The notes beneath the pieces were generated by a model. The model was not told where the DNA came from, ran no database searches, and saw only the letters and a program-made list of their open reading frames with translations. Positions 1 through 17,908 of a stretch of 64,000 nucleotides of DNA are shown here, one piece after another. Source of the DNA: Candidatus Latescibacterota bacterium (GTDB taxonomy: Bacteria > Latescibacterota > UBA2968); the NCBI GenBank assembly GCA_965205975.1, contig OZ242195.1:4352001-4416000 (forward strand), written 5' to 3'. The number at the start of each line of letters is the position of its first letter. Positions within the stretch are counted from its first letter, which is position 1. A program made the position numbers and the translations under genes.

Positions 1-3000
1 CTTCGTATGTCACACCTGTGGTGCCTGAGATTTCGGTTTCTACACCGCCTATTACGCGGATCCACTGGTAGATATAGGTGACATTTTCGAGGCCGTCGAT
101 ATCCCGGATGTTCGAGACGTCCGCCGTCAGTGTTTCTCCCACTTCGGGTGTGCCGCTGATTGTTGGGGCGCCTGTGGCTGGATAGTTGGGGGGTGTGTCG
201 TTGTCGTTTACGGTGACGCTTGCCAAGGATGGTGTGCCTACTGCATAGCCTGTTCCGGACTGTAATGCTGCGGTTATGATGCTGGCGTTTTCATTTGTGT
301 TATCGTCTTCTGTTGCGACTGTCAGGATTGCGGTGGTTTCATTGGCGTTAATGGTGATGGTTGAAGGCGGTGTGCTGCTGATGACACTACCCGTTTCTGT
401 CACGCTTATGTTCACGGTCAGTTCGGCTGTCGGTGCAGGTGTCGCTGTGATTGTGAATGTGGCATCCGTGCCTTCGGTGATGGGGGAGGTCCCTGCCGAG
501 ATGGTCACCTGTGGGACCGGTGCTTCGCGGGTGACTGTGATGGTGTAGGTCACTTGCGTGGTGCCGTCTTCGGCTGTGACTATTACTGTGATGGTGTTTT
601 CGCCTTCGACAAGTGACACGTCCAATGTGGTCGCGGTCTGTCCGTTGATGGTTACGGTTGCACCCGGGTTGTTGGCTGTCGCTGTAATTGTTATGGTCGA
701 GATCCCATTTTCCACTGAGACGGTGTAGTCCAATGTCGCCGGGTCGAATGCCGGGGTCAGTGTGCCGGGATTGATGGTCAAGTCGCTCAGGGTTGCGTCT
801 GTGGATGGGGCACCGCGGGTGATTGTGATGGTGTAGGTCAGTTGCGTGGTGTTGTCTTCGGCTGTGACTGTTACCGCGATGTCCATTGTGTCGCCGGTAA
901 ACGGTACGTTTGATGTGGTCGCGGTCTGCCCATTGATGGTTACGGTTGCATCCAGGTCACCGGGTATTGCTGTGACTGTTACCATTGAGGTCGCGTGCGG
1001 CACTGTGGCGGTGTAGGTGTATGTGTCGGGATCGAATACTGGATTCAGTGTGCCGGGGTTGATTGTCAGGTTGCTCAGGGTTGCGTCGGTCGATAAGACC
1101 ACTTCGTCGTCCAGTACGAATACTTTGGCTGAGGATGGGTCGCCTACTGTGTAGCCTGTTCCAGCTTTTACTTGTGCGGTTACGACACTGGCGTGTTCAT
1201 CTATGTCATCGTCGTGTGTTGCGACTGTCAGTGTGGCGGTGGTGTAGCCGGCACTGATGGTGACGGTCGATGGGGGTGTGCCGCTGAGCATTTTGGCGGT
1301 TTCGGTGACGCTTATGTTCACAGTCAGGGGAGTAACCGATGGCTGGTTTGCTGTGATTGTGAAGGTGGCATTCGTGCCTTCGGTGACGGTTGTGGGATTC
1401 GCTTTGATGGTCACCTGTGGGAGGCTTGTTGGCGCACGGTTGACGGTGATGGTGTAGGTCAATTGGGTGACGCCATCCACGGCTGTTACTGTTACTGTGA
1501 CGTCCATCGAGTCACCGGTAAATGGTATGTTCAATGAGGTGGTGTTCTGGCCGTTTATGGCTACGGTTGCGTCCGGGTTATTGGGTGTTGTTGTAACTGT
1601 TACGGATGAGGCATCGTGAGGCACGAGGGCGGTGTAGGACAATGTCTCCGGGGCGAATGTCGGGGTCATCACGCCGGGGGTGATGGTGAGGTTGCTCAGG
1701 GTTGCGTCCATCGCGGGTGGCAGGTCGTCATCCAGGACGAGTACTCTGGCTGAGGATGGTGTGCCTACTGTATAGCCCATTCCGGTTTGCACTTGCGCGG
1801 TTACGACACTGGCGTGTTCATCTGTCTTATCGTTGTCTGTTGCGACTGTCAGGGTGGTTTGACCAGCGCTGATGGTGACGGTTGAGGGGGGTGTGCCGCT
1901 GAGGGTATTGGCGGTTTCGGTGACGTTCACGTTCACAGTGAGTGTGATTGTGGGGGCAGGTGTCGCTGTGATTGTGAAAGTGGCAGGCGTGCCTTCGGTG
2001 ACACCTGGGGGGTCCGCTGTGATTGTTATGATCGGCGTTACGCCAGGGATGACCACCATCGCTGTCAATGCGCTTTCGAGTTCTTCGGGATAGCCCACAT
2101 CGTCGGTGAAGTTGACCCGAACTTTTAGCTGGTAACCGCTATCGGCTGTTACGACTTCATGCGTCGAGTCCGTGGCTCCGGCGATTTCCATTTCCACACT
2201 GTCCATGACGCGGATCCACTGATAGGTGTATGATACATTGGTGAGGCCATTGGCATCCCGGATGTTTGAGACATCGGCTGTCAGTGTTTCACCCAACGCG
2301 GGTGTGCCGATGATTATTGGGGCACCTGTGGCTGGATAGTTGGGGGGTGTGTCGTTGTCGTTTACGGTGACGCTTGCCGATGATGGTGTGCTCACTGTGT
2401 AGCCCGTGCCTGCTATTACCTGCGCCGTTACGGTACCAGAGGATTCGCGTACGTCATCATCGTGTGTTGCGACTGTGAGTGTGGCGGTGCTCTGTCTGGC
2501 TTTGAAGGTGACTGATGATGCCGGTGTTCCACTGAGGATATCGCCGGTTTGGGTCAGCTTTACCTTCACCTTCAGTGCGGCTGTGGGTGCGGGATCCGCT
2601 GTGAGTGTGAATGTGGCAGCCGTGCCTTCGGTGACGCTCGCGCGATTCGCCGCGATTGTCATTTCTGGCGGATCTGGAGTCTTTACCCCTGGGCCATCGT
2701 TGTCTTCAACGGTGACAGTTGTCGAGGATGGTGTACCTGCTGTGTAGCCTGTTCCGGCCTGTACCTGCGCGGTTATTACACTGGCGGTTTCTCTTACATT
2801 ATCGTCGTCCGTTGCGACTATCAGTGTGGCGGTGCCAGAGGTACCAATGGTGACTGTTGCGTCCGGTGTGCCGCTGATGACGTCGCCGTCCTCGCTGACG
2901 TTTATACTTACGGTTATTGTGGTTGACGGTGCAGGGGATGCTGTAAGTGTAAATGTTGCATCCGTGCCTTCGGTGATGGGTGAGGTTCCTGCCGAGATTG

Positions 3001-6000
3001 TCACCTGTGGGGTTCCAGGCACTGGTGGTTGCTGTGTTGTTGGCGGCTGCGTTGTTATTGGTGGTGATCCAGGCGTCTCGTCGTCATCTACTGTCACCCT
3101 CACCGAGGCCGCTGTTACGTTGTTGTAGTCACCGCCGCTGACTGTGTGTTGTACGGTGGCTGAGTCGTTCGTCGCGTCATCGTCCTGGTCCGCATTCACT
3201 GTTACCGTTTGCGCTGTGCTCCAGTCATTGTTCGTGAAGGTCAGGCTCGTCTCCGACACGGTCACGTCCTCAGACGATCCCGATGCCTTTGACACCCCCA
3301 CTATCACGGTCGCTGTCGGCTCCGAGGTCAGAACCACCGTGTAGGTATTGTTGCTTCCCTCGTTCACGGTCAGGGAGGTGGGTGATACCCTCACCCCGCG
3401 CGTGTCGTTGTCCCGAATCGTCCCGGTCGCTTCATCGTCCCCTATTATCGCGTTGGTGCTCGCATTGCTCAGTGTTACGGTGAAGGTTTCGTTGTCTTCA
3501 TCTATATCGTCGTTCTCTATTGTTATGCTGATCGTCTGTGACGCCGTGCTACTGGCGGGGAATGTCAGGTTGCCGTTATCCGCGGTGTAGTCCTCTCCCT
3601 CTGTCGCCGTGCCGTTTGATGTTGCGTAATCCACTGTCACGGGCTGGGTACTCGCCACGCTCAGACGCACCGTGAACGACATTGTCCCGGCGCTCTCAGA
3701 CGCACTTGCATTGTCAATGCTCAGCGTCGATATGTCGTTTTCGATGATCGTTACTATTACCGGATCCGCTGACTCCCCGGCGTAGTCGCCGCCGCTGACC
3801 GTGTGCGTGATAGTCACTGATGGATCTAAGTCCGAGTCGGTGTCATCAGCCGCATCCACTCTCACTGTTTTCGGGTTATGCCAGTTGCCCGTCGTGAATA
3901 TCAAACTCGTCTGATTTACCGACACATCCGTGTTCGATGGCACGTTCACCGACACGGTCACGTTCTCGGTCGGCTGCGAGGTCAGCACTACTCTGTAGGT
4001 GTTGTTGCCATTTTCCGGCACGTTTAATGCTGTCGGTTCCACCGTCACTCCACGCGTGTCGTCATCCTCAATGGTTCCGGTCGCAGAGGTAGTCCCCAGC
4101 GTCGCGTTGCTCACATTGCTCAGCGTCAAGGTGAAGGTTTCGTTATTTTCATCTATATTGTCATTCCGGATCGTTACGCGGATGGTCTGTGTGCGAGCAC
4201 TGTTCGGGGAGAATGTCAGCCTGCCGCTCCTCTGTGTATAGTCCCCAGGTGCTATCGCCGTGTCGTCCGATGTCGCATAATCTACCGTTACTGTTTGTGC
4301 ATTCGGCCCATTTAGTGTCACGGTGAATTCCATGCTTCCCGCACTCTCTGCAACGGTCTGATTCGCGCCGATTGATAGCTGTGGCATGTCGTTGTCTTCA
4401 ACAGTGACGGTTGCCGAGGATGGAGAGCCTGTTGTATAATCTGTTCCGCTCTGCAGTCGCGCTGTTATCGTGCCACTCAACTCATCTATATTATCATTTT
4501 CGGTATTGACTGTTAGTGTGGCGGTGGCCTGGTTGGTGCTGAAATCGACGGTTGAGGGCGGTGTGCCGCTGATGAAATTGCGGTTCTCGCTGACGCTTAC
4601 GGTCACGGTTAGTGGGGTTGCCGGTGCGGGATCCGCTGTGATTGTGAATTCCGCATTTTCACCTTCGGTGATGGGCGTCGTTACCGCTTCGATTTTTATC
4701 CGCGGATTGTCATTGTCTTGAATGATGACGGTTGCCTTGTCTGGGTCGCCTACGTCATAGCCTGTTCTCTTCAACAGTTCCGCGCTTATCTCGCCATTCG
4801 GTTCATCTACCTGATCATTTTCAGTATTGACTGTTATTGTGGCGGTGGATTGGTTGGCGTTGAAGAAGACCGTGTGAATGCCTTCGCCCGGTGTGCCGGT
4901 GATGAAATCGCCGATCTGGCTGATGCGCACTTCTGCATTTAGTGGAGCCGTCGGAGCAGGGTCCATTGTGATTTTGAATGTCTTGGTCTGACCTTCGATG
5001 ATGGTTGGAGGATTTGTTTCAATTGTCCCGACTGGCATTTCTCCACCCACGACTGCTGTCAACGCGCTTTCGATCTCACACGTACCGTTATTGAAGGTTA
5101 CCTTAACTTTCAGTCGGTGATCATTATCGTCTGACACTATTGTATATGTGCTACCCGTCCCGATATTGGTCTCTGTATTGCCCTGCACGCGAATCCATTG
5201 AATAGTTGTCACACCGCTGAGGCCATGGGAGACGGTTAATATTTCACCCTCGTCGAGCGTGCCGCTGATTGTTGGGGCTCCTGTCGGTTGCCAGCCTGGA
5301 GGAGCATAAACATCTATGGTCACCGAAGATGGATCGCCTACTTTGTAAGCCGCGTCGCCAGGATTAATACCGAGGTTGTCTCCATAGTAGTAGGCATCCA
5401 AGAGATAGGATTCAATTTTGCGTCTCGGTGTGTGCCCACAGGTCTCTTCCTGTACGCGGAAAGAATACGATCTCTCCCCTGGCGGATGCCTGTTGTCCGA
5501 CTGCGGATGAAGGATTTCCACCATCGGTTCCCAGTCGGTAATATCCGGCAGGTGTCCGCCCGTTCGGAAATCCACCCGATGCCTGTAGCCGTGAGGTTCG
5601 GTGCGCTTCATTGTGAGCGTCACCCTGTCGCCTATTGCGACCCGCGTTTGGTTTGTGTGAAGCGTTACGACCGGAAGTTCCATCATCGACGGTGGATCGT
5701 CGTTGCTATTCGGATCTGGTGGCGCATCCTCGTCACTGTCAATCACCTGCACGGATGCATCTCCCGGGTCACCAACCGTGTAGCCATTCCCTTCTTCTAT
5801 TGACACGCTCACCGAGCCCCAATTGTCTGTTTGTCCCTCCTCGTAGAGTTCATCCGGTCTCTCATTGAAATCCTGGATCGGTACTCTCAGTGTGGCCTGT
5901 CCAGAGGTCCCGACGGTGATTGTCGTAGGACGCGTGTAGTTGTCGGGGAGGACAGGTCCGCTACTGGTCACTTCTATGTTCACCGTCAGGTTACTGGTTG

Positions 6001-6178
6001 GGGCTGGTGTCACCGATATGATAAATGTGGCGCTCTTGCCTTCCATGACGCTGGTAGGGCTTGACGCAATTGAAACCTCCTGCGCCCCTGCCGCGATTGG
6101 CAATGCCAGCATGAGAATGAAGGCTGTCAGGCGGGTGCGGATGATGTGTGAAAAAATTTGTTCAATTTGTGAGAACAT
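1..6178 (-). CDS. Giant secreted modular surface protein/adhesin (Calx-beta-like, cadherin-like beta-sandwich and Ig-like repeats); 3' end lies beyond the window, >2050 aa
   Basis: Hand translation from ATG at 6178: MFSQIEQIFSHIIRTRLTAFILMLALPIAAGA|QEVSI (signal peptide). The same frame reads sensibly at ~5300-5460 and at the window edge (TYIYQWIRVIGGVETEISGTTGVTYE). Repeats include DATLSxLTIxPG.., TGAPTISG..YQWIRV and T/V/D-rich Calx-beta-like units. It is absent from the ORF track because no stop lies inside the window. Confidence 0.88.
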   Translation of the reverse strand, partial: MFSQIEQIFSHIIRTRLTAFILMLALPIAAGAQEVSIASSPTSVMEGKSATFIISVTPAPTSNLTVNIEVTSSGPVLPDNYTRPTTITVGTSGQATLRVPIQDFNERPDELYEEGQTDNWGSVSVSIEEGNGYTVGDPGDASVQVIDSDEDAPPDPNSNDDPPSMMELPVVTLHTNQTRVAIGDRVTLTMKRTEPHGYRHRVDFRTGGHLPDITDWEPMVEILHPQSDNRHPPGERSYSFRVQEETCGHTPRRKIESYLLDAYYYGDNLGINPGDAAYKVGDPSSVTIDVYAPPGWQPTGAPTISGTLDEGEILTVSHGLSGVTTIQWIRVQGNTETNIGTGSTYTIVSDDNDHRLKVKVTFNNGTCEIESALTAVVGGEMPVGTIETNPPTIIEGQTKTFKITMDPAPTAPLNAEVRISQIGDFITGTPGEGIHTVFFNANQSTATITVNTENDQVDEPNGEISAELLKRTGYDVGDPDKATVIIQDNDNPRIKIEAVTTPITEGENAEFTITADPAPATPLTVTVSVSENRNFISGTPPSTVDFSTNQATATLTVNTENDNIDELSGTITARLQSGTDYTTGSPSSATVTVEDNDMPQLSIGANQTVAESAGSMEFTVTLNGPNAQTVTVDYATSDDTAIAPGDYTQRSGRLTFSPNSARTQTIRVTIRNDNIDENNETFTLTLSNVSNATLGTTSATGTIEDDDTRGVTVEPTALNVPENGNNTYRVVLTSQPTENVTVSVNVPSNTDVSVNQTSLIFTTGNWHNPKTVRVDAADDTDSDLDPSVTITHTVSGGDYAGESADPVIVTIIENDISTLSIDNASASESAGTMSFTVRLSVASTQPVTVDYATSNGTATEGEDYTADNGNLTFPASSTASQTISITIENDDIDEDNETFTVTLSNASTNAIIGDDEATGTIRDNDTRGVRVSPTSLTVNEGSNNTYTVVLTSEPTATVIVGVSKASGSSEDVTVSETSLTFTNNDWSTAQTVTVNADQDDDATNDSATVQHTVSGGDYNNVTAASVRVTVDDDETPGSPPITTQPPTTQQPPVPGTPQVTISAGTSPITEGTDATFTLTASPAPSTTITVSINVSEDGDVISGTPDATVTIGTSGTATLIVATDDDNVRETASVITAQVQAGTGYTAGTPSSTTVTVEDNDGPGVKTPDPPEMTIAANRASVTEGTAATFTLTADPAPTAALKVKVKLTQTGDILSGTPASSVTFKARQSTATLTVATHDDDVRESSGTVTAQVIAGTGYTVSTPSSASVTVNDNDTPPNYPATGAPIIIGTPALGETLTADVSNIRDANGLTNVSYTYQWIRVMDSVEMEIAGATDSTHEVVTADSGYQLKVRVNFTDDVGYPEELESALTAMVVIPGVTPIITITADPPGVTEGTPATFTITATPAPTITLTVNVNVTETANTLSGTPPSTVTISAGQTTLTVATDNDKTDEHASVVTAQVQTGMGYTVGTPSSARVLVLDDDLPPAMDATLSNLTITPGVMTPTFAPETLSYTALVPHDASSVTVTTTPNNPDATVAINGQNTTSLNIPFTGDSMDVTVTVTAVDGVTQLTYTITVNRAPTSLPQVTIKANPTTVTEGTNATFTITANQPSVTPLTVNISVTETAKMLSGTPPSTVTISAGYTTATLTVATHDDDIDEHASVVTAQVKAGTGYTVGDPSSAKVFVLDDEVVLSTDATLSNLTINPGTLNPVFDPDTYTYTATVPHATSMVTVTAIPGDLDATVTINGQTATTSNVPFTGDTMDIAVTVTAEDNTTQLTYTITITRGAPSTDATLSDLTINPGTLTPAFDPATLDYTVSVENGISTITITATANNPGATVTINGQTATTLDVSLVEGENTITVIVTAEDGTTQVTYTITVTREAPVPQVTISAGTSPITEGTDATFTITATPAPTAELTVNISVTETGSVISSTPPSTITINANETTAILTVATEDDNTNENASIITAALQSGTGYAVGTPSLASVTVNDNDTPPNYPATGAPTISGTPEVGETLTADVSNIRDIDGLENVTYIYQWIRVIGGVETEISGTTGVTYE

Positions 6179-6211
6179 TTTTTTGTCCGTGACGCTCTCT
6201 TGAGGCGTGTT

Positions 6212-6619
6212 TCACGATTCTGTATCGCGGTCCAGGTCGATGGCTACGGAGTTAATGCAATAGCGCAGGCCCGTGGGGGCGGGTCCGTCGTCGAAGATGT
6301 GACCCAGGTGGGCGTCGCAGCGGGCGCAGGTGACTTCGATGCGGCGCATGCCAAAGCTCAGGTCTTCGTGCTGGTTGATACGTTCGGGGTCAATGGCGTC
6401 AAAAAAGCTGGGCCATCCGCAGTGGGAATCGAATTTCTGGTCTGAGCGGAAGAGTTCAGCATTGCAGCATACACAGCGATATACGCCTTCTTCACGGCAG
6501 TCCCAGTACATGCCTGTGAAGGCGCGTTCCGTGCCTTTTTGGCGGCAGACGTAGTATTGTTCGGGCGTGAGTTGTTCCCGCCATTCTCGGTCTGTTTTGG
6601 TGATTTTTTCGTCGTTCAT
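6212..6619 (-). CDS. msrB: Peptide-methionine (R)-S-oxide reductase
   Basis: GTERAF, CxxC zinc pairs, [22 protein letters not shown] motifs. Confidence 0.97.
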
Positions 6620-6631
6620 GTAGATCCTTTT

Positions 6632-7141
6632 TTATTTACTAATGCTTTTCATGATGCGTTCGATAGCGCCGTCGGCAAGTGCCTGCATTTCTTCGTCGGT
6701 GCGATCCTGGATGGGATGGGCGACGAAGACGCGAGCGGGATTAAATCCCAGGGCAGTCGATTGGGCATCGGCTGCTTCTCGGAACGGCTCGGATGCGACA
6801 AAGACGGTGGGTATGCCGCGCGTTTCCAGGTTGGTCGTGTCGTGCACACTGCACGTTGTACAGGACCCTCAATCGGCCAGGCCTTCGACGACGACATCGC
6901 ATTCGGTGGCGATTTGTTGCTGGAGTTCGATGGGTGCCGGGCGCGTGAATGTGGGTTTGATGTAGCGGTTGACTTTGAGGTTGCGCTGTGCGAGGTGCGT
7001 TTCGATGCGGTCGAGGAAGACGTCGCCCCGGCTTTTGGATATGTCGAGAAGTCCGATGGTCAGGCCGTCGAGTGATTGCGGGCGTTTTACCCGTTCTCTC
7101 TGTGCTGGTTTTTGTTCGGATGTGGGGTCGAGCAATTTCAT
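6632..7141 (-). CDS. UGSC-family selenoprotein (169 aa, Sec encoded by TGA at 6869-6871)
   Basis: Two track ORFs (6869..7180 and 6632..6847) are in the same frame and join through a single TGA to read ..VVEGLAD-U-GSCTTCSVHD..RGIP... A hairpin follows the UGA directly. ATG at 7141 overlaps the upstream stop (ATGA). Confidence 0.9.
6833..6867 (-). promoter_or_regulatory. Putative bacterial SECIS hairpin
   Basis: mRNA after the UGA: GGUC-C-UGU-ACAA-CGUGCA-GUG-UGCACG-ACA-C-GACC. This gives a perfect 6-bp apical stem with a G-containing loop and a lower stem. Confidence 0.75.
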
Positions 7142-8553
7142 GGCGTGATCTCCTTTGTGATGGGTTGGCTGGCTCCCCAACTGCTGATGAGGGCAGAGAA
7201 TAAGCCCGCGTCTCCGCCTGCGCGGACGATGTGCAATGTGTTGTTGCGAAATTTGGGTAGTGTTTCTTTGTCTTTTGCCCGCGTGCCTTCAGGGATGCCG
7301 CCCGCGCCTGAGAGCAGTTCTGCGACGGGGAGTTGGAGGTACTGATTTAGTGTGTCGCAGAATCGGGTTTTTGACCAGCCTGCGTCTGCATATCGGCGGG
7401 TGTGTTCTGGCGATATGACCAGTACGGGAGGCGGGCTATTTGCGTGTTTGGGATGGCCATCGGCTTTGAGGCAGGCGGCGAAGGATCGGCACAGGGCGTC
7501 GGGATCTCGGGATGCCTGATCCATGATGGGGGTGACGCCGCTGGCTGCAAAGAGCGAGACTGTGGATGCGTCGGGTGAGAATCCCCTTTCGACGGCAAGG
7601 GATTCCCAGGGGGAATCGTCTTCGCGTTCGGCAAAGCAGAAGGTGTATTTGCCCGGGTTGCCGAGCGTGGCGCGATCAATGCCACCGGGGATGCCGCCGC
7701 CGATGTTGCGGATGACGAGTTGAAGGGCGCGTCCGATGGTCGCGTTGGCGCGGTTGCCCTGCCCGAGCGCGTTGACCCGCGCGTTCATGTCGATTTCGCG
7801 TGTTATCGGTCCATTGACGACGATCATGGGGCCTGCAAAGAATGTGGTGGCGAGCAGTCCGTGCATGCAAAAGGCCTCTGTGAGTGCGGTTTCAACCGCT
7901 GCGAGTACGACGGGGAGATATTCGGGTTTGCATCCGGCGAGGACAGCGTTGATGGCGACTTTTTCTACGGTACATTTGTTGTAATTGGGGGGGACGATGC
8001 CCACCAATTCGTCGGGGGAGCGGGTTGTTCCCGATAGCATGCGCATGATGCGTTCTTCGGTGGGTGGCACGACGGGCAAGCCGTCGCTCCAGCCGCGTTC
8101 AAAACAGGTTTCTATTTCGTCTTCGAGAGCGCCGACTTCAATGCGCCGGGCGGCGAGTACGGTTTCGCCAAATTGTACGGCGAGTTTTTCAGCTATGCCC
8201 GGTTCGATGCTTTTTGATCCGCATCCCGGGCGGGATTCGGGCAGGTCTGCGCCGAGGGGGCTGAGTCCCGATACGGTTTCCCAATCGCCGCGATGCCATC
8301 CAACAGTTCGCGCCACTTCTCGCCCTTTTTCAAAACGGAGCAGGGTCGGTACGGTTTCGATGTTGAGACGATAGGAGTGTTCCAGACCAGTGTCGTCAAT
8401 AACGTCTGCAATTCCCGTGGGAAAATCGGGATTGTCCTGGGTGTAAACCGCGAGTGATTCTTCCCGTTTTCCAATTTGTCTGAGTACGGGTGCAATGAGA
8501 GCACAGGTCGGGCAGTCCTGTTTTACCACGGCTATTAAGCTGTGTGTGTTCAT
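7138..8553 (-). CDS. Thioredoxin-fold (CPTC) protein fused to the GWSDGLPVVPPT domain typical of UGSC-selenoprotein partners
   Basis: N-terminal KQDCPTC and IETVPTL (cis-Pro) Trx motifs, a PGCGS linker, then GWSDGLPVVPPT, VEKVAINAVLAGC and NRANATIGRA. Confidence 0.8.
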   Translation of the reverse strand: MNTHSLIAVVKQDCPTCALIAPVLRQIGKREESLAVYTQDNPDFPTGIADVIDDTGLEHSYRLNIETVPTLLRFEKGREVARTVGWHRGDWETVSGLSPLGADLPESRPGCGSKSIEPGIAEKLAVQFGETVLAARRIEVGALEDEIETCFERGWSDGLPVVPPTEERIMRMLSGTTRSPDELVGIVPPNYNKCTVEKVAINAVLAGCKPEYLPVVLAAVETALTEAFCMHGLLATTFFAGPMIVVNGPITREIDMNARVNALGQGNRANATIGRALQLVIRNIGGGIPGGIDRATLGNPGKYTFCFAEREDDSPWESLAVERGFSPDASTVSLFAASGVTPIMDQASRDPDALCRSFAACLKADGHPKHANSPPPVLVISPEHTRRYADAGWSKTRFCDTLNQYLQLPVAELLSGAGGIPEGTRAKDKETLPKFRNNTLHIVRAGGDAGLFSALISSWGASQPITKEITP

Positions 8554-8736
8554 CTATTTTGTCCTTTTGAACATTGTATTTCTTTTTGCAGAATGTCGTA
8601 ATTTACCGATGTTATGCCATTATCAGGTACGGCGAGACACAAAGAGTTCTGTTAGAAAGACAGTTATGCGCTGCAAGTTTGATGCTCGCCCCTTCACGCT
8701 TTTCAAGAGGGATTTTTTGCTATATAAGTACTTATC

Positions 8737-8753
8737 TGCAATATCTATGCCAA
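8737..8753 (-). promoter_or_regulatory. Sigma54 (-24/-12) promoter facing the Trx-UGSC-msrB-adhesin genes
   Basis: Minus strand TTGGCATAGATATTGCA; exact GG-N10-GC spacing. Confidence 0.75.
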
Positions 8754-8848
8754 TGTGAGGCTGTTCGAGCGATCACAATCACAAATAATTGTTTTTATTT
8801 AATGTATAATGACAAAAAAAGAAAAAATCAGGCAGAGGAGTTTTTACT

Positions 8849-8870
8849 ATTAGACGATATATCGTCTAAT
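8849..8870. promoter_or_regulatory. Perfect 22-bp palindrome, putative enhancer (UAS)
   Basis: ATTAGACGATATATCGTCTAAT, about 100 bp upstream of the sigma54 site. Confidence 0.65.
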
Positions 8871-9147
8871 TTTTATGACCAATGGCCGATATACAGACCA
8901 ATGGTCGAAATAAAAACTATGAGAGGGGATATAGGGGATATACAAGATATTGTGGGGAAATACAGTATTGGACTGCTAATGTAGAACATGTCGCGTTTTT
9001 AGGGAAGAAAAAAATACAGGTTTTACAAGTATTTAAAAAAAGTGGTCATATCTATAATAACCCGATGCAATACATTCTTGACAAGTGCGCGATATATCAT
9101 TACTGAAAATATCATTGGATTCTTGAACGCCACCTTATCACAATCTT

Positions 9148-11124
9148 ATGGCACTTGCACAATCACAACCCGAACCTGCGCGGGCGCGGCATATTACCGT
9201 CCGATCTATTGTCCTTGGTGCGGCTACTGCGGCGTTGCTCAATATTTACAGCGATTACACGGGCATGATTTTGGGGTCTGCTTCGCTGGTTAAGTCGCAG
9301 TTGTCCATGGCTATGCTTTTGCCCTTTGTCGCGTGGCTCGTGATCAATCTCATTCTAAAGCTGGCCTGGCCGCGCATGGCTTTGCGGGGCACAGAGCTTC
9401 TGGTTATTTACAGCATGTCGTGGATTGTGGGCACGGTTTCGGCAAGTGGGTGGACGACCTATTGGGGCGGTATTGTCAGTACGCCGTTTTATTATGCTTC
9501 TCCCGAAAATCGATGGGAAGAGGTCCTTTTTGATATTTTGCCGTGGTGGTGTTTGCCCCAGGCAACGCCCGAAATTATTCGCACGTATTACGAGGGGCTT
9601 CCCGATGGCGCGAGTATTCCCTGGCGCGGTTGGCTGGCTTCGCTGCACTGGTGGTTCGCCGTATCTATTGCCCTTGTTGTTGCCGGGTTATGTCTCGCGG
9701 TCATTTTTCAAAAGCAGTGGGAGGAGAACGAGCGTCTGACTTTTCCTCTCGCGGCTTTTCCGATTGCACTGACCGAGGGCTTTGACGAACCGGGCCGCGT
9801 TATACCCGGTATTTTTCGGAATAAACTCTTTTGGGTCGGCTTTTTTATTGTTTTTGGTGTTTTTGCCTGGAATATCCTCGGTTATTTTGCCATTAGCTTG
9901 CCCCGAATTGGCATTTACGACGGTTATCTGACCAAGGAGGTGCCTATTGCGCGCAATTTTCCATCGTTTTATTTGCGTATTTTGCCACCTGTTTTAGGGC
10001 TTACTTATATGTGTAACCTGGATATCCTCTTCAGTTTTTGGGCTTTTCGTCTTATCGCCATTGTCAAAGAAGGGGTGATGGCTCGCACGGGTTTTAATGT
10101 GGGCCTTTCCGGGCAACAGGCCGAGGCGGCCGAGATTCTGATTTTAGAATCTCATGGTGCTTTCATCTTTCTGGCAGTGTGGGCGGTATGGGTCGCGCGA
10201 GGTCATTTGCGAGATGTTCTTCGCGCAGCGATGACGGGAGGGGCAGATGACGGTCTGGTATCTTATCGCCTGGCATTGCTCGGTTTTATTGCGGCGACTA
10301 TTTTTGTTTTTGGGTGGTTCGTCGCGGTGGGTTTGTCTCCTTTTCTCGCGCTCTTCCACCTCTTACTGCTTTATGCAGCGTATTTTACTGTGGCAAAATA
10401 CACTGCGGCCAGCGGTTTTTCTTATCTTTTTCCGGTTGGGGGCAAGGGGGGGCAAATTGTCGAGATTTTTACGGGGACCGCAACGCTTACGCAACAAAAT
10501 ACCGTTGCTCTGGGCGTGATCAATTCGAGTGCATTTTTTGGCAATTCGCGCATTCCCGCATGGCCCGCTCTGCCTCATCATCTCAAACTTTTGGGGAATG
10601 ACGTCCGCCGTCGCTGGGTTTTCTGGATCGTTTTGTTGGCTTTTGCCTCGGGGTTTTTTGGATCGTGTCTTTTTATTGTGCATTTGGGATATAATTACGC
10701 GGGTCAAAACCTGGGGCTGTCGGGTTTTAGCGGGTCCAATATTCGCACGTACGATCGCATGGTTTCCGCTATTGTTGGCGCGGATAAAACGGTTTTTGAT
10801 CCGGGTAAAATAGCGGTCTGGATTTTTGGGTTTGGGCAAGCGGGTCTGCTTATGCTCCTTCGCAATCGCGTCCCGTGGTGGCCCTTGCACCCCCTGGGTC
10901 TGGCTTTTCAGAAGATGTCGGGTTCTCGGGTCTATGCCTTCAGTATTTTTCTGACCTGGGCGTCCAAGCTCATTATTCTGCGCATTGGTGGCATTTCGAT
11001 CTATCGGCGCTGTATCCCTTTGTTCTTTGGTCTTGTGATCGGTTATGTCGTCGGTGTGGGGGTGTCTTCTGTTGTCGATTTTACCTTTTTCCCGGAAGAA
11101 GGGCATTCTGTTCACGGGTGGTAG
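9148..11124 (+). CDS. Polytopic membrane protein, DUF6785/DUF6784-like (putative transporter)
   Basis: Many TM segments; QWEENERLTFPLA and WWPLHPLG motifs. Confidence 0.75.
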   Translation: MALAQSQPEPARARHITVRSIVLGAATAALLNIYSDYTGMILGSASLVKSQLSMAMLLPFVAWLVINLILKLAWPRMALRGTELLVIYSMSWIVGTVSASGWTTYWGGIVSTPFYYASPENRWEEVLFDILPWWCLPQATPEIIRTYYEGLPDGASIPWRGWLASLHWWFAVSIALVVAGLCLAVIFQKQWEENERLTFPLAAFPIALTEGFDEPGRVIPGIFRNKLFWVGFFIVFGVFAWNILGYFAISLPRIGIYDGYLTKEVPIARNFPSFYLRILPPVLGLTYMCNLDILFSFWAFRLIAIVKEGVMARTGFNVGLSGQQAEAAEILILESHGAFIFLAVWAVWVARGHLRDVLRAAMTGGADDGLVSYRLALLGFIAATIFVFGWFVAVGLSPFLALFHLLLLYAAYFTVAKYTAASGFSYLFPVGGKGGQIVEIFTGTATLTQQNTVALGVINSSAFFGNSRIPAWPALPHHLKLLGNDVRRRWVFWIVLLAFASGFFGSCLFIVHLGYNYAGQNLGLSGFSGSNIRTYDRMVSAIVGADKTVFDPGKIAVWIFGFGQAGLLMLLRNRVPWWPLHPLGLAFQKMSGSRVYAFSIFLTWASKLIILRIGGISIYRRCIPLFFGLVIGYVVGVGVSSVVDFTFFPEEGHSVHGW

Positions 11125-11129
11125 CTCTT

Positions 11130-11741
11130 ATGTCCAATCGCTATCCCATTCCCGCCGAGACCTGCCGCGTAGAGGATGAAATTAAGCGCAGTCGCTTTAT
11201 TACGACGTTGGCGCATACATCGGTGCGAGAAGAAGCTCGTGTGTTTATCGATCAAATTCGCGCCGAGTTTCCCGATGCTTCACACAATTGCTGGGCGTTC
11301 CTGATCGGGCCACCAGGTACAACGGGTAATGTGGGGATGAGCGATGATGGAGAGCCGCATGGTACGGCTGGTCGTCCTATGCTGACCGTGCTCACGCATT
11401 CGGGGCTTGGCGATGTGGTAGTAGTTGTGACGCGCTATTTTGGTGGGACAAAGTTGGGGAAAGGCGGGCTTGTGCGGGCTTATTCAGGCGGGGTGCAACA
11501 CGCGCTTGAGAAGGTTCAATGCACAGAGCGCGTGACGCGGATCGCTGTTTTGGCGACGATTGGCTATGCGGCTTATGAATCTTTCAAGCGGTTGCTTCCG
11601 GATTTTGAAGTGCGTGTTGTCGCTGAAGATTTTGGGACCGATATTACATGCGAACTGGCTGTGCCTGAAGAACAGGTTGGACCTTTCAAACAGGCGGTGG
11701 GGAATCTGACCAGGGGACAGGCGCAGGTTGAGGAGGTGTGA
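11130..11741 (+). CDS. yigZ: YigZ/IMPACT family protein
   Basis: IKRSRF, ASHNCWAF, SDDGEPHGTAG, VTRYFGGTKLGKGGLVRAY; start trimmed to MSNRY. Confidence 0.93.
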   Translation: MSNRYPIPAETCRVEDEIKRSRFITTLAHTSVREEARVFIDQIRAEFPDASHNCWAFLIGPPGTTGNVGMSDDGEPHGTAGRPMLTVLTHSGLGDVVVVVTRYFGGTKLGKGGLVRAYSGGVQHALEKVQCTERVTRIAVLATIGYAAYESFKRLLPDFEVRVVAEDFGTDITCELAVPEEQVGPFKQAVGNLTRGQAQVEEV

Positions 11742-11749
11742 GGCGCGCG

Positions 11750-12919
11750 TTATGCCTTATCGCGGATCAAGTTTGGCAAGCGCGTGTCGGGATTGATGCC
11801 GATGGCGTGTTTGCCGTTTAAGAGTGCGATCAGGTCTGCGCCTAAAAATTCGTACCGCCAACCTGTGTGCAACGGATTATCCGTCGCATTTTTTTTGCGG
11901 GAAATGAATTCTTTGACTTCTGATCGCGATGCGACCATTGGGATGTCGATGCCTTCTGATAGACACCGTCCGCGCAAGAAAGCCATGGCGAGATCGAGAC
12001 GTGCATCGTCAAAGGGATCGGGTCGCACAGGTGGGGATATGGGCGGGCAATTTTTTTCGTCGATTGCCAATCCGCGCTGTACAGCGTTGAGGAGGCTATT
12101 GCTGTGCTGATTTATGGTTGATCTCGGGATACCCCGCAATCGTTTTAGCGACTGAGATGATTGCGGCTTGCGCCGGGCGATTTGCACGATGGCGTTATCG
12201 CTCATGATCCAGGTTTTGGGGCGGTCTGTCTGTCGGGCCTTTTGTTCGCGCCAGGTGGCCAGTTCGCGCACGATGGCCATATTGCGTCTGGAGAGTCGTC
12301 CTGTGCCTTTTACGCGCGTATATTGTTCTTCGGGCGCGCGGTCGTCGTACAATTTGGCAATATCGTACTGACGGAGCTCTTCTGCCAACCAGTTTTCTCG
12401 ACCTCGTCGATGAATGTCGGTCAGGATATGTTCGCGCAGGGCAGGCAAATATCGCACATCATCCAGGGCATAGGCGAGTTGTTTATCCGATAATGGTCGC
12501 CTCAACCAGTTTGTGCGCGTTTCTGTTTTGGGTAATTGTATGTTGAGACACAGGCGCAATAAATTGCCCAGCGATAGGTTTGAACTCAAATCCATGAAGC
12601 CCGCTGCACAACGCGTGTCAAATATATTGCAGGGGAGAGCATCTGTTATCCGTCTCAAAATCCAGAGGTCTTGCTGTGCATCGTGCAAAATTTTCACAGT
12701 GTGAGGGTTTGATAATAAGGTACCCAGAGGCGATAGATCCGATAATGTGACGGTATCTATCAGGTGGCAATCATTTTCTGAAAGTCCCACCTGTATAATG
12801 CCCAGGCGCGGATAATAGGTTTGTTCCCAGATAAATTCTGTATCAATGCCCACACAGGGCGCGTTTAGAGCGCGGTTGACAAGGGTTTCGAGTTCGTTGG
12901 GTGTATTGATTAGTGGCAT
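11750..12919 (-). CDS. rnd: Ribonuclease D
   Basis: DTEF..YYP, HDAQQD, FDT, WLRRPLS..QLAYALDDV, HRDC domain. Confidence 0.93.
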   Translation of the reverse strand: MPLINTPNELETLVNRALNAPCVGIDTEFIWEQTYYPRLGIIQVGLSENDCHLIDTVTLSDLSPLGTLLSNPHTVKILHDAQQDLWILRRITDALPCNIFDTRCAAGFMDLSSNLSLGNLLRLCLNIQLPKTETRTNWLRRPLSDKQLAYALDDVRYLPALREHILTDIHRRGRENWLAEELRQYDIAKLYDDRAPEEQYTRVKGTGRLSRRNMAIVRELATWREQKARQTDRPKTWIMSDNAIVQIARRKPQSSQSLKRLRGIPRSTINQHSNSLLNAVQRGLAIDEKNCPPISPPVRPDPFDDARLDLAMAFLRGRCLSEGIDIPMVASRSEVKEFISRKKNATDNPLHTGWRYEFLGADLIALLNGKHAIGINPDTRLPNLIRDKA

Positions 12920-13018
12920 GAAAAGACCGTTTTGGTTAATGTGTTGAGATCAAGGTATCACATCACGCGCTTAATATCAAGCACAGAACCTGCACCTTAT
13001 TATTATAAAGGAGTCTGT

Positions 13019-13930
13019 ATGAACCATCGACAACTTGGCAAAGACGGTGCCGACATCCCGGTTATAGGCCTGGGTGCCTGGCCCATTGGCGGCGGTATGG
13101 GCAATATGGACGATAGGGATAGTATTGATACTGTGCGTACTGCTATTGACAGCGGTATTACCCTGCTCGATACTGCACAGGCATATCGCACCAGCGAGGC
13201 CACACTGGGCAGAGCGCTCAAAGATGGCTATCGCGAGCGGTGCTTTCTGGCGACGAAAGTCAGTCGTCAATATTCTCGCGGGGATATTGAATACGCCATT
13301 GAAAATAGCCTGCGAAATCTCGATGTCGATTACGTAGATTTGTATCAAATCCACAGTTGGAACCCTCAATATCCCATTGAAGAGAGTATGGAAACTATGG
13401 CCCGGCTGCAAGAGCAGGGCAAAACGCGCTTTATCGGGGTTTCCAACTTCAATGCGGCACAGATGCAACAGGCGTACGATATTGCCCCATTTCATTCAAA
13501 TCAGCCGCGCTACAATATGTTTGATCGGAATATTGAAGCCGAAGATCTGGATTTTTGCAAACAAACGGGTATTGGCATCCTCGCCCATAGTCCCCTGGGG
13601 AAAGGTTTGCTTACGGGCAAATATGCGTCCGGTCACGTCTTTTCCGAAGACGACGAGCGCGCGAATTCACCTCGCTTTCAAGGCGATCTCTTCGCCCGTT
13701 ATCTCGCAGTGGCAGACCAGTTAAAATCCGTTGCTGCCGATAAAAATATCACGATGGTGCAACTCGCTATTGCCTGGCTTCTTCGCCGCGAGGAAGTAAC
13801 ATGTGTGCTCGTTGGGGCAAAAAATTCCGATCAGGCCAAAGAACACGTCGGCGCGGCAGATGTCGCGTTTTCGGATGATGAATTGGAACGTATTGAAAAA
13901 ATTTTGCAAGATACGCCGAGTGGCTTTTAG
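13019..13930 (+). CDS. Aldo/keto reductase
   Basis: IGLGAW, DTAQAY, DLYQIH, IGVSNF, SPLGKGLL; RBS AAGGAG before MNHRQ. Confidence 0.93.
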   Translation: MNHRQLGKDGADIPVIGLGAWPIGGGMGNMDDRDSIDTVRTAIDSGITLLDTAQAYRTSEATLGRALKDGYRERCFLATKVSRQYSRGDIEYAIENSLRNLDVDYVDLYQIHSWNPQYPIEESMETMARLQEQGKTRFIGVSNFNAAQMQQAYDIAPFHSNQPRYNMFDRNIEAEDLDFCKQTGIGILAHSPLGKGLLTGKYASGHVFSEDDERANSPRFQGDLFARYLAVADQLKSVAADKNITMVQLAIAWLLRREEVTCVLVGAKNSDQAKEHVGAADVAFSDDELERIEKILQDTPSGF

Positions 13931-13940
13931 GAGGTTTATC

Positions 13941-14765
13941 ATGATTATTGATCCCCATCTCCATGTGTGGAGCGATGACGAGGAAACCTATCCCTACGGT
14001 CCCAGCCAACCCCATGAGGCGGGTTCGGTCGAGCTTTTGTTTGAGACGATGGCGGACGCAGGGGTGGATAAAGCGGTTATTGTTCAGCCGATCCACTATC
14101 TCTTTGATAATCGATATGTGGCCGATTGTCTCAAACGGTATCCCGATAAGCTGGCAGCACAGGCTCTTGTGGATCCCACATCACCCGATGCAGCGGATGA
14201 GTTGGAGCGTTTGCACAGGGAAGAGGGGTTTGGCGGGATGCGCATTCATTTGTCGCGTTATGGAGACCCTAAAGGTCTGGCTGCACCTGACAAGGATCCG
14301 CTGTGGGCGCGTGCCCGAGATCTGGGCCTGTGTTTCAATCTGTTTGGTGGGGCTGAGGATCATGCGCCTGTTGAACCCATTATTGCCCGGTTTCCCGAGG
14401 TCAATGTTGTGGTTGATCACATTGCCGGTATTCCCGTGGATGAGCCGGATCCCAAGCCCTTGCTGACCAATTTGCTCAATTGGGGACAATATCCCAATGT
14501 GTATGTCAAGATTTCCAATGTGGGACAGCGATCCAATATGCCCTATCCACACCGAGATACGCACGATATGATCAAGCGCATTTACGATGTTTACGGTCCG
14601 GAGCGTTTGATGTGGGGTACGGATTTTCCCCATGTGTTCAGGAGTTGTGGGTACAGAGGGTCTCTGGATTTGATACGCGACCACATGTTTTTTAATGATA
14701 ACGATCTCGAATGGATTCTGTGTAAGACCATTCTCAAACTGTGGTCTTTTGATGAGCGCATATGA
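13941..14765 (+). CDS. Amidohydrolase_2 family protein (sugar-lactonase-like)
   Basis: IDPHLHVW, VVDH, RLMWGTDFP. Confidence 0.88.
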   Translation: MIIDPHLHVWSDDEETYPYGPSQPHEAGSVELLFETMADAGVDKAVIVQPIHYLFDNRYVADCLKRYPDKLAAQALVDPTSPDAADELERLHREEGFGGMRIHLSRYGDPKGLAAPDKDPLWARARDLGLCFNLFGGAEDHAPVEPIIARFPEVNVVVDHIAGIPVDEPDPKPLLTNLLNWGQYPNVYVKISNVGQRSNMPYPHRDTHDMIKRIYDVYGPERLMWGTDFPHVFRSCGYRGSLDLIRDHMFFNDNDLEWILCKTILKLWSFDERI

Positions 14766-14845
14766 GAATCTGATGGGATTTTTCGTAAAATAAAAGAGCC
14801 ATAACACCTGAATGGTATGGCTCTTTATTGTATTGTGATTAATCG

Positions 14846-15676
14846 CTATCCCAGTGCTTCGAGATATTCTTCGCCTTTGTGTTCGCGCAGCCAACTTTTG
14901 AGGGGGACATCGGCTTCTGTGGGTTGCCACCACCCTTTGACGTCTATGCCATCGCCGAGTAGCTGGCGGCGGATGGGGTCGCATTTGCCGAGTATATTTT
15001 CGGGCATGAGGTTGTAATCCAGCCCCCGCAGCCAGCGATAACTGTAGCCAAAGAATAGCACGCGGCGCGTGACGTCGGATGTGTTAATTCCCCGCCGGTG
15101 CCACATTCTGCGGTCAAAGAGTACGGCTGTTCCCGCCTTAACACATACGGGCATCACATCGCATTCTTCGGGTTTTGTGTCCAGTTTGTGACTGCGCGGC
15201 ACTATTTGCATTGCGCCGTGTTCTGGGGTGTCAACATCGCTTAGCCAGTAACTGATTTTTAGCGATAAGCGCGGGTGGGGACGCTCCATCTCGGGTACGG
15301 GTCGCCCGCCGTCTTGATGCCAGCCGCCCGGGTTAATCTCGCGTTTCTTTTGTTCGGGGGGATATACGATTAGATGGGAAATATAAAGCTGGATATTCCA
15401 CCCCAAAATATCCCATAATAAGGGAAATGTTTTGGGGTTATCGAGTAATTCCAGAAAGACATCGTCTTCCACAATGGTTCGGAATTTACCCAGAAGAGCA
15501 TTTGGTTTCAGTCCTTGTACTTCGCGCTCCTGCGCTTCTACCCGATCGACAGCGTCATTCAATCGCGCGAGCAGGTCGGGCGATAGAGCGTCTTCGACAA
15601 TCAAATACCCCTCGTCATTGAATTGCCTGAGTTGCGCTTCTGTAGCGCAGTGTTGCAACCATTTTTTCGCGTTCAT
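14846..15676 (-). CDS. Phytanoyl-CoA dioxygenase (PhyH) family Fe/2OG oxygenase
   Basis: GYLIVED, WHQD, PRSH, distal WH..R. Confidence 0.9.
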   Translation of the reverse strand: MNAKKWLQHCATEAQLRQFNDEGYLIVEDALSPDLLARLNDAVDRVEAQEREVQGLKPNALLGKFRTIVEDDVFLELLDNPKTFPLLWDILGWNIQLYISHLIVYPPEQKKREINPGGWHQDGGRPVPEMERPHPRLSLKISYWLSDVDTPEHGAMQIVPRSHKLDTKPEECDVMPVCVKAGTAVLFDRRMWHRRGINTSDVTRRVLFFGYSYRWLRGLDYNLMPENILGKCDPIRRQLLGDGIDVKGWWQPTEADVPLKSWLREHKGEEYLEALG

Positions 15677-15687
15677 GGTGTTTTCCT

Positions 15688-17904
15688 TTATCCTCGTCTG
15701 CTGATCATGATGGTGGCACAGGTGATATTTTGTGCGAGAACCGGTGCGAGTTGTCCAAATTGTCTGCGGTTTTTGTCAATGCGCTCCAATCCCAAAATCG
15801 CCAGATCGTAGTTATTTGCCATATCCGTAATTGCTTCGAGGGGTTTGTTGTGGCGCACCACCAGGGCGTCGGCTCTGGTGGGAACTTCTTCGTTTGCAAA
15901 TTGCGTCAGTCTGCGCTGTGCGCGGTCACACTGAAAATCACTGATGTGTTCGGGCAATACCTGCAAAAATGTGACTTCGCGGTTGCCCGTGCGACACAGA
16001 CTGCCCAGTAAGCGGGCGCGAAATTTGTCATGGGCACCAAGTCCACGCGTGGGCACCAGTACGCGATGCACGTTCTTTAAGTGCCAACCCGGTGGCGCGT
16101 GCAATACCACGACATCACATGATACAGAACTGATGAGTTCTTCCAGATGGACACTGTTGACGTCGCTCAGACCCAATAATAAACTCTCGCAGCGGTGCAC
16201 GCGCGAGACCCGCACAATCTCGGGCCAGGGTTGTGGTGCGATGGTCATCAGTGCTTCGGGGGCCATTCCAGCGGCAAACGAGGCTGTTACGGCTTCTCTG
16301 AGTACTGTTTGTGTGTCGTGTAAGGAGTGCGGAGATTCTTTCTCGCGCCATCCCTCTTCTGGGGTAGCCACTACGGATAATAACAACACGCGTCCCACGC
16401 CTGGCGGTGCGAGCGCGTGGGCAACTGCGACCATGGCAGAGGCATTTTGAGGATTGGCCACGGGTACGAGGACCAGGGGGCTGCGACCGCGCATTTGGAG
16501 CAGTTGTGGGTCGAGTGCTTCGGCAGAGGCATCGACAACGCGGGCGCGGCGCGCCAATAATGCCCAGTACAATAATCCGCCCAGTCCCAGCCATACCGCC
16601 GAGATCAAGCCAGCGGTTGGCACGGATATGGCTTGAAAGAGTGCCAATCCGGCGCAGCACAGACCGCCTGTGACGGGTATGAGGGGGAAAAATGGCGTGT
16701 GGAATGGTGCGGGTGTTCGCCGTCGCGTTCGGGCCAGGATGCTGGTCCAGTGCGTCATGGCAAAAGAGATGAGAAAAATCAAACTCGCCGCGGCACCGGC
16801 AGCCGCTACATCTGGTACGACCATCAGCAGGGTTGCCATTGTTAGAGCACTGACACAGATTGCGGTTATGGGCGTTTTATGGCGAATGTGTACTTCACCA
16901 ATGGGTGCGGGAAGGGTGCGGTCTTGCGCCATGGTGAGGGCTACGCGGGAAGCGGCAAGCAGATTGGCCTGTAGTGCAGATAGCATGGACAAGATGGCGG
17001 CGATCAGCACCAGCCAGAATCCTATGTCACCCAGAAAATGTCGCGCCGCGAGAGCCACCACGACTTCGGGATGGTTGGCACTCAGGCCACCTATGGTCTG
17101 TCCAGGTGGGACACCCACAGTCGCGATAACAAAGAGCAGAGGCAGATAGACGCCCAGAGCCGCTGCGAGAGACAAGAGCATGGCCCGCGGCAATGTGCGT
17201 TCGGGGGTGCGTACTTCGCCGGCAACGGCGGCGATGAGATCAAAACCCTGGAGGGCGATAAAGGTGTATCCCATGGCTTGAAAAAATCCCGTTGTTCCAT
17301 GGGTGAGAAATGGTGTCAAGCTGGCGTGTATGGCCCCCAGGCTGCGGCCCGTGAGTGCCCATAGACCGCCGCCGATAAGCACCGCAAAGACGGCCATTTT
17401 TGCAAAGTTGATCCAGTTGTCCCCGCCTCCGCTCGTGCGAATGAGGCCAAAGGTATAATAGGCGGTTGCGCCTATGGCCAGCGTTGCGACCATCGCATGT
17501 CCAAGAAGCCATTCTGGTGCGACGCCAAAGAGAAGACGCACACATTCTTGCAGTGCTATTGCTGCATAGGATGCAAACCCCATTGCGTAGAGTACGCCGG
17601 CGACGATGGATGCAAACCAGCCCACCCATCCAAAGGCGAAAGCCGCGCGTACGGATAATACGTTTTTGGCAAATGTATAGGTGCCGCCGGACTGGGGGAA
17701 TGCGGTTGACATCTCGGCAAAGCTCAATGCTGTCAGTACTGCTATCACACCATTGGCTGCAAAGACGAGTAGTGTCGCCGGTCCGGTGGTCGCATAGGCC
17801 ACGCCTGCAAGTGCGAGTATGCCGCCTCCGACGATGGCGCCAATGCCCACGCCCGTAGCACCTGCCAGACCTATGGAACGTTCTATGGTTCCCTGTTTGT
17901 TCAT
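15688..17904 (-). CDS. APC amino-acid permease with C-terminal USP-like domains
   Basis: GAIVGGGI, GGTYTF, QGFDLI..AGEV; C-terminal VLVPVANP and VLVPT USP-like segments. Confidence 0.88.
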   Translation of the reverse strand: MNKQGTIERSIGLAGATGVGIGAIVGGGILALAGVAYATTGPATLLVFAANGVIAVLTALSFAEMSTAFPQSGGTYTFAKNVLSVRAAFAFGWVGWFASIVAGVLYAMGFASYAAIALQECVRLLFGVAPEWLLGHAMVATLAIGATAYYTFGLIRTSGGGDNWINFAKMAVFAVLIGGGLWALTGRSLGAIHASLTPFLTHGTTGFFQAMGYTFIALQGFDLIAAVAGEVRTPERTLPRAMLLSLAAALGVYLPLLFVIATVGVPPGQTIGGLSANHPEVVVALAARHFLGDIGFWLVLIAAILSMLSALQANLLAASRVALTMAQDRTLPAPIGEVHIRHKTPITAICVSALTMATLLMVVPDVAAAGAAASLIFLISFAMTHWTSILARTRRRTPAPFHTPFFPLIPVTGGLCCAGLALFQAISVPTAGLISAVWLGLGGLLYWALLARRARVVDASAEALDPQLLQMRGRSPLVLVPVANPQNASAMVAVAHALAPPGVGRVLLLSVVATPEEGWREKESPHSLHDTQTVLREAVTASFAAGMAPEALMTIAPQPWPEIVRVSRVHRCESLLLGLSDVNSVHLEELISSVSCDVVVLHAPPGWHLKNVHRVLVPTRGLGAHDKFRARLLGSLCRTGNREVTFLQVLPEHISDFQCDRAQRRLTQFANEEVPTRADALVVRHNKPLEAITDMANNYDLAILGLERIDKNRRQFGQLAPVLAQNITCATIMISRRG

Positions 17905-17908
17905 TGTT

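Follow-up and report, generated by a model that had tools for sequence, protein, structure and literature searches.

Comparative evidence indicates that the in-frame TGA at 6871-6869 of the window, the whole 64,000-nucleotide stretch of DNA analyzed here, is almost certainly decoded as selenocysteine (Sec). The resulting 169-residue UGSC protein probably works with the product of the gene directly upstream as a two-subunit selenium reductase recycled by thiols. The features involved are as follows.

6632..7141 (-): UGSC-family selenoprotein gene, 169 aa plus TAA, with the motif U91-G-S-C94-T-T-C97
6869..6871 (-): in-frame TGA, the inferred selenocysteine codon (residue 91); TGA in related loci, Cys in distant relatives
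6841..6855 (-): putative bacterial SECIS core, a 6-bp stem CGUGCA/UGCACG with the 3-nt loop GUG, 19 nt after the UGA
6833..6867 (-): full hairpin as originally drawn, with an outer GGUC/GACC stem that is not conserved
7150..7155 (-): AAGGAG, ribosome-binding-site-like, 8 nt 5' of the UGSC start (read from sequence)
7138..8553 (-): partner gene, 471 aa, with a thioredoxin-fold domain at ~1-98, P-G-C111-G-S and then the ~340-aa Unknown_1
8221..8223 (-): codon of partner Cys111, a residue shared by all 100 aligned homologues; the codon reads TGA in 3 of 84 loci
6212..6619 (-): msrB (methionine-R-sulfoxide reductase; Pfam/NCBIfam match), 12 nt downstream of UGSC

Read on the minus strand, 7141..6632 is a single 169-codon frame whose sole in-frame TGA lies in the context LAD-U-GSCTTCSVHD; open reading frame calling under table 11 splits it into 7180..6869 and 6847..6632. 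Translation bears out the original prediction that two apparent open reading frames are one frame split by TGA. That prediction named no strand, and all parts of the feature are on the minus strand; a plus-strand reading of 6632-7141 was dropped because the motif is on the minus strand, and no family match was sought there. The read-through protein matches PF24696 (UGSC, Pfam) across the whole domain at 153.7 bits (E 7e-45, cut-off 25) and NF041046 (NCBIfam) at 159 bits (cut-off 125), so the assignment to the UGSC family holds with both curated cut-offs passed. The gene is single-copy in the window's genome.

The UGSC family has been catalogued since 2007-2008 as 'UGSC-containing protein' by Zhang and Gladyshev (PMC1976440, PMC2398784) and makes up 8.2% of selenoprotein genes in ocean and freshwater metagenomes, according to the available text of PMC9402790. 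With the family known since 2007 and its link to Unknown_1 since 2008, the window gene is very likely an ordinary, unsurprising further member. The accessible portions of PMC2398784, PMC13188914, PMC1976440 and PMC9402790 give no function for it, in keeping with the earlier statement that none is known to have been demonstrated.

Several lines of evidence support decoding of the TGA as selenocysteine. The window genome, a single contig and 98% complete, encodes selA (582 bits), selB (388 bits) and selD (371 bits), all above cut-off; selA adjoins selB, and tRNA-Sec(UCA) adjoins selD, which carries its own in-frame TGA. All four genes proposed as a check, selA, selB, selC and selD, are therefore found. 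selA is above cut-off in 10 of 10 tested genomes with TGA-form UGSC and in neither of two with the Cys form, a control made of two genomes of unstated completeness (G385, without a selA match, and G547, broken-looking elsewhere). Loci were compared for the best 80 of 378 UGSC relatives confirmed in the GTDB collection; all 80 have TGA at the Sec codon and an intact frame downstream of it, and they are not independent, 13 being near-identical relatives. Within the window's phylum the family occurs in 52 of 151 genomes, with one TGA inside each of the 58 listed matches. More distant relatives come from a library of 1.8 billion proteins (2,446 matches at E <= 0.001). Among the best 150 representatives, 51 terminate at the residue preceding the Sec site; of the 70 full-length ones, 64 carry cysteine at the Sec position, as revealed by the alignment to Cys homologues that the original prediction had called for. 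Full Sec machinery, Cys homologues and the family cut-offs together support its selenocysteine reading, and neither of the refuting findings it had named, a genome lacking Sec machinery or homologues lacking Cys or Sec at the site, holds.

That the TGA instead marks a true stop in a split gene or pseudogene, arises from a sequencing error or encodes tryptophan has next to no probability: database products are mostly 92-94 aa long and end at the TGA codon, two full-length database records have W at the site and the hairpin is not significant by itself, but comparative data already contradict these readings, since TGA recurs in 80/80 loci with an intact downstream frame and frozen codons, homologues free of read-through have Cys rather than Trp at the site (64/70), the genome has tRNA-Sec(UCA) and only tRNA-Trp(CCA), the partner gene in the same genome terminates with TGA, and the fold model is continuous across the TGA codon (pLDDT 93.7). 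The W-bearing records are likely gene calls made under code 4. Since most database records of the gene end at the UGA, annotation pipelines still miss it.

A few loci place the UGSC gene beside Sec genes: selA and selB in 2 of 80 and tRNA-Sec in 3 of 80. The pair lies directly beside selA/selB and/or tRNA-Sec at L088:6608-9783, L034:253-3330, L087:4363-4460 and G359:C1:1389989-1395588; these genomes are unrelated, as though the pair moved together with the Sec machinery. Locus L088 belongs to the culturable Halopseudomonas xiamenensis, where selAB follow directly behind the UGSC pair.

The hairpin after the UGA needs separate treatment. It is the minimum-energy fold in 50-, 60- and 70-nt windows and in one of two 100-nt windows, with an energy of -14.6 kcal/mol in the 50-nt window. 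Its stability is no better than chance against shuffles (z -1.06 to +1.10 in five windows), and our own coding of the bacterial SECIS rule accepts 94 (17%) of the 550 TGAs sampled in the window; for these reasons folding alone proves nothing, and hairpin stability was rejected as evidence for Sec. The same coding is satisfied by 83 of 92 distinct homologous TGA contexts and by one of two Cys-form contexts, the latter too small a number for a control. The loop (GUG), stem length (6 bp), spacing (19 nt) and energy (-14.6 kcal/mol) fit all four consensus criteria stated in the available text of PMC13188914.

Conservation across 68 loci (the 80 loci minus 12 near-identical ones) is more informative about which part of the hairpin matters. 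Five of the six pairs of the upper stem CGUGCA/UGCACG are kept in 68/68 loci and the closing pair in 65/68, the changes being wobble plus a few two-sided (compensatory) ones, and the loop begins GU in all 68. A divergent paralogue (L131) preserves the stem by exchanging a C-G pair for G-C, at the cost of two altered residues. The outer GGUC/GACC pairs are each kept in only 26 to 44 of the 68 loci, and one of the three UGU/ACA pairs in 19. Because the upper pairs are conserved and the outer pairs are not, we assign the putative SECIS to the upper stem-loop (6855-6841), which appears to be of the standard bacterial type, and take the outer stem as incidental to the window genome. The SECIS-like hairpin as originally drawn is thus exact as a structure and conserved in its upper stem; its outer GGUC/GACC stem is not.

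The codons that encode this stem-loop are also constrained. From +4 to +8 and at +10 downstream of the UGA, synonymous codon usage is frozen (ACG 64/68, TCG 51/52, TGC 67/68, AGT 65/65, GTG 53/53 and GAC 66/68), while +1 and +2 vary freely in the 68 loci. The serine codon AGT, used without exception in the frozen stretch, accounts for 1% in the rest of the gene. The Cys-form locus L129 is without the frozen codons.

The segment 6839-6874 of the window (UGA plus SECIS) alone matches many otherwise unlike RNA-library contigs at >=85% identity, which makes it the part of the locus best conserved at the DNA level and a possible family probe. Rfam at gathering scores gives no match in window 1-20000. 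A crude genome scan for a hairpin plus Cys returned 730 candidates and so cannot call selenoproteins. Five sites are likely other selenoproteins of the window genome, each with a G-loop hairpin: G000:C1:4439674 (+), 1533907 (-), 3282745 (-), 3042949 (+) and 3426376 (-). SelD among them was identified by family scan, and the others are, we presume from their motifs, a SelW-like CxxU protein and three peroxiredoxin/thioredoxin-like UxxC proteins.

The motif itself has a conserved core and a variable flank. In distant relatives the positions of U-G-S-C are C, G, S and C in 64, 66, 56 and 63 of 70 sequences. C97 is invariant within the window's subfamily; in distant full-length relatives the position is Cys in 16 of 70 and Trp in 28, and H100 is kept in 27. 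The family core is U/C-x-x-C, made up of U/C91, G92 and C94, and the overlapping CxxC is a subfamily trait, because C97 is Cys in so few distant relatives. The earlier description of a UxxC overlapping a CxxC therefore applies here and in the subfamily, and does not extend to the distant relatives. Nine fused proteins from the window's phylum (L112-L120; ~548 aa) carry the variant motif H-U-S-T-C-A-P-A and score 65-73 bits on NF041046, below its cut-off.

The upstream partner gene, on which the original prediction was silent, is the part most worth following, rather than the UGSC gene alone. Its stop overlaps the UGSC start as ATGA (7141-7138). The partner is present in 79 of 80 UGSC loci, always on the same strand, and lies within 150 nt in 75. 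Its Unknown_1 region was found fused to UGSC by Zhang and Gladyshev in 2008 (PMC2398784 Fig. S1A), and the aligned stretch of that figure, the part of the paper used here, matches the partner's AINAVLAGCKPEY region. We found UGSC-Unknown_1 fusions in all nine examined loci L112-L120 and in seven of eight representatives of >=280 aa, the eighth being a frameshifted record with both parts. Most of the 32 'longer' matches were not counted as fusions; they look like frameshift read-throughs from partner into UGSC. Because the genes overlap, co-occur and are fused in other bacteria, the two proteins probably form a physical complex or one enzyme.

The partner's N-terminal part is recognizable by structure rather than by sequence. 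In the model (pLDDT 85.8), residues 1-98 match thioredoxins at Z 9.8 (rmsd 2.0, 87 aligned), with the CxxC pair C14-P-T-C17; by sequence the domain is below the Pfam and NCBIfam thioredoxin cut-offs, and a sequence search of solved structures matches the partner to thioredoxins only. A Pfam search of the partner and 100 members found no family beyond weak thioredoxin matches, which leaves Unknown_1 without a Pfam family, and no pyruvoyl-proprotein-type match occurs among the 100 members. The partner belongs to a very large family, in which each of the 8,000 candidates scored passes, corresponding to at least 8,000 clusters at 90% identity. Atlas clusters for Unknown_1 are only unnamed ones of the same family, one with 16% PF24696. 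The full partner model gives no clear fold match for Unknown_1, a weak test in which the thioredoxin part filled the match lists. Foldseek matches this model weakly to Fe-S fumarate hydratases (E 3.7e-4, TM 0.21, rmsd 16). Kinship of Unknown_1 with fumarase finds no sequence support (probability 0.1%), and the same holds for GrdE in a comparison with one contig-truncated GrdE-like sequence (probability 0.1%).

C14, C17 and C111 of the partner are invariant in 100 close homologues. In the three loci with TGA at the Cys111 codon (L031:4854, L057:4847 and L062:4892, all +), the codon is accompanied by a G-loop SECIS-like hairpin and all three genomes have selA; these loci are from related actinobacteria and perhaps reflect one event. 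With TGA at P-G-C-G-S, their operons would encode two selenoproteins. The replacement of Cys by Sec among homologues marks a residue as redox-active. By this pairing argument Cys111 is probably a redox-active residue. A Sec form of the partner corresponds to no family in Table 1 of the 2026 inventory, within its available text (PMC13188914).

These residues suggest a relay. SelB would read the hairpin and insert Sec at codon 91. The U91 selenolate would attack a small substrate bound at Unknown_1 or by it; C94 would then resolve the U91 adduct to a selenenylsulfide. The partner would restore the selenol via Cys111 (itself Sec in some genomes) and the thioredoxin pair C14-x-x-C17, which the cell's thioredoxin system would in turn reduce, with C97 as an auxiliary thiol of the window's subfamily. 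The bond cleaved could be O-O or S-O, in a peroxide or sulfoxide, or else C-N/C-X, the type that glycine reductase B breaks. The proposed cycle follows the general selenolate-selenenylsulfide-thiol pattern set out in the accessible part of PMC10298544. On balance we favor this sequence of U91 attack, C94 resolution and recharging by partner C111 and CxxC. The relay via Cys111/CxxC cannot be universal, because many partners, both the fused forms and several stand-alone ones, are without the thioredoxin domain and Cys111. Across 15 divergent rows, Unknown_1 has no fully conserved cysteine; position 210 of the A1 profile is Cys in six of them.

A special case of the two-subunit reductase would make UGSC a distant relative of glycine/sarcosine/betaine reductase protein B that breaks a C-N or C-X bond; Unknown_1 would take over substrate activation from GrdE, and Cys111 the role of GrdA. 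We regard this as possible and on the unlikely side. GrdF and GrdB models match 44 and 43 of 68 UGSC members at E <= 0.1 (best E 1.5e-5 and 8e-6, respectively). A GrdB-like protein (L121) has the same U-G-S-C-x-x-C followed by a helix, G-I and a strand (hhalign E 2.3e-4, probability 45%, 76 columns) and ranks first of ~7,900 sequences with a 117-row UGSC profile (E 2.6e-4). UxxCxxC is the motif given for GrdB/F/H in the available text of PMC6778437 and PMC13188914. Against this, masking the seven motif residues abolishes the match (nothing at E <= 20), and a profile built from 70 divergent Cys forms weakens it to E 0.097, rank 2; a PrdB-like protein does not rise above background against UGSC profiles; the partner is unlike the GrdE-like protein compared above; and the third cysteine is not UGSC-family-wide. 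UGSC scores 11.6-12.2 bits against GrdB/GrdF/GrdH/PrdB cut-offs of 300-800, PF07355 has no match in the window genome, and the GrdB-like protein has no solved relative at E <= 1. Kinship with GrdB is plausible, the likeness appearing weak and motif-driven. The GrdB/GrdF-like selenoprotein genes, with U-G-S-C-N-R-C, lie at L121:1204-2550 (-) and L122:1489-2835 (+) in two genomes of the window's class, and each precedes a GrdE-like gene.

A bolder version, possible and on the unlikely side, is that UGSC and Unknown_1 constitute an undescribed, very widespread selenium reductase system descended from glycine-reductase-B chemistry. It would comprise a flavodoxin-like Sec subunit, an uncatalogued substrate-binding subunit and a built-in thioredoxin relay with Cys111 sometimes Sec, and its reaction would be the cleavage of a C-N, C-S or C-halogen bond in some metabolite common in aquatic habitats. 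If this is true, the partner is an uncatalogued selenoprotein family.

The gene neighborhood raises a different function, that of an oxidative-stress enzyme, a thioredoxin-fed peroxidase or sulfoxide reductase beside MsrB, which we consider unlikely. msrB adjoins UGSC in the window and in all 13 close relatives, against 1 of 67 other loci, which suggests a linkage limited to the window's lineage. The UxxCxxC of GrdB has a peroxidase side activity, which counts for such a function. In aquatic metagenomes, moreover, few selenoproteins are as abundant as this family (PMC2398784, PMC9402790, each in its available text). A 340-aa partner domain is not obviously needed by a peroxidase, and the two or three paralogous UGSC-partner pairs of some genomes would better fit substrate-specific enzymes. 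Clustering of 81 loci, which is noisy with many shadow frames, shows no third neighbor shared across lineages and no substrate clue.

The predicted fold of UGSC bears on a further possibility. The UGSC model has five strands alternating with helices, with U91 opening the helix after strand 3, and it matches flavodoxin/Rossmann-like proteins at Z 9-12 (FMN reductases, receivers, TIR, PurE). No thioredoxin-fold chains are among its listed matches; the fold is predicted to be flavodoxin-like, apparently a misfit with the 'likely' Trx-like fold proposed in PMC2398784 and repeated in PMC13188914, as far as their accessible text goes. A sequence search of solved structures returns nothing for UGSC at E < 0.6, and an Atlas search with a natural Cys homologue gives no usable match outside PF24696. 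The top natural match is chain H of 8s7v, the methyl-CoM reductase activation complex (Z 12.1, rmsd 2.8, 128 aligned, 13% identity), which from its length we infer to be Mmp7, a ligand donor to complex Fe-S clusters (PMC12176620, available part). This match and the partner's weak Foldseek matches to Fe-S fumarate hydratases would suit a metal-cluster protein, in which U91/C94/C97/H100 serve as metal or Fe-S ligands rather than as a thiol relay. Such a role is quite improbable: in a second look the 8s7v match has Z 11.0, on a par with generic alpha/beta proteins; the fumarase match, at rmsd 16, has a sequence probability of 0.1%; of 70 distant relatives only 16 retain C97 and 27 retain H100; and the fused thioredoxin domain points to thiol chemistry.

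Transcription of the locus is suggested by RNA-library contigs of related strains (three studies), which cover parts of 6231-8540, one spanning 6521-7489. They leave 6100-6186 and 8623-8700 uncovered and, being contigs, mark no transcript ends. A promoter/terminator scan of 5900-9300 finds no more than in shuffles. On one side, window 2-6178 (-) is an open frame of >2,059 aa that runs off the window, with a signal-peptide-like start and repeated beta-rich units that we take to be Calx-beta/cadherin-like; it is likely a large surface protein. On the other, window 9148-11121 (+) encodes a 658-aa membrane protein (DUF6785 + DUF6784); its gene is oriented divergently to the partner gene, and close relatives retain the synteny.

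The value of the window locus is as a compact test object for the proposed thiol-recycled two-subunit reductase: two adjacent genes behind a long-orphan family, with defined redox residues (U91 and C94; partner C14, C17 and C111). Natural all-cysteine UGSC pairs, which need no Sec machinery, also exist (for example at locus L129).

Three known systems can be set beside this locus. The Mmp7/McrC-like domain (8s7v chain H, its identity inferred) is a similar alpha/beta sandwich (Z 11-12, rmsd ~3); identity is only 13-14%, not clearly above generic flavodoxin-like matches, and its archaeal methanogenesis context is absent at the window locus. GrdB/GrdF/GrdH (PF07355, TIGR01917, TIGR01918) and PrdB (TIGR04483) share with UGSC the UxxCxxC after a strand, followed by a helix and a G-I/V-strand, and, as proposed here for UGSC, the need for a larger partner subunit and thiol recycling. 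UGSC differs in its length (169 aa versus ~435), in scoring far below every cut-off, in a likeness that is lost on motif masking and in a partner unlike the one GrdE tested. With the UGSC family itself (PF24696/NF041046) the window gene shares U-G-S-C, a SECIS after the UGA, Sec and Cys forms and the association with Unknown_1, and it passes both cut-offs over the whole length. At the family level the gene shows no difference, whereas its arrangement does: the association described in 2008 is a fusion, and in the window Unknown_1 sits in its own gene upstream, joined there to a thioredoxin domain.
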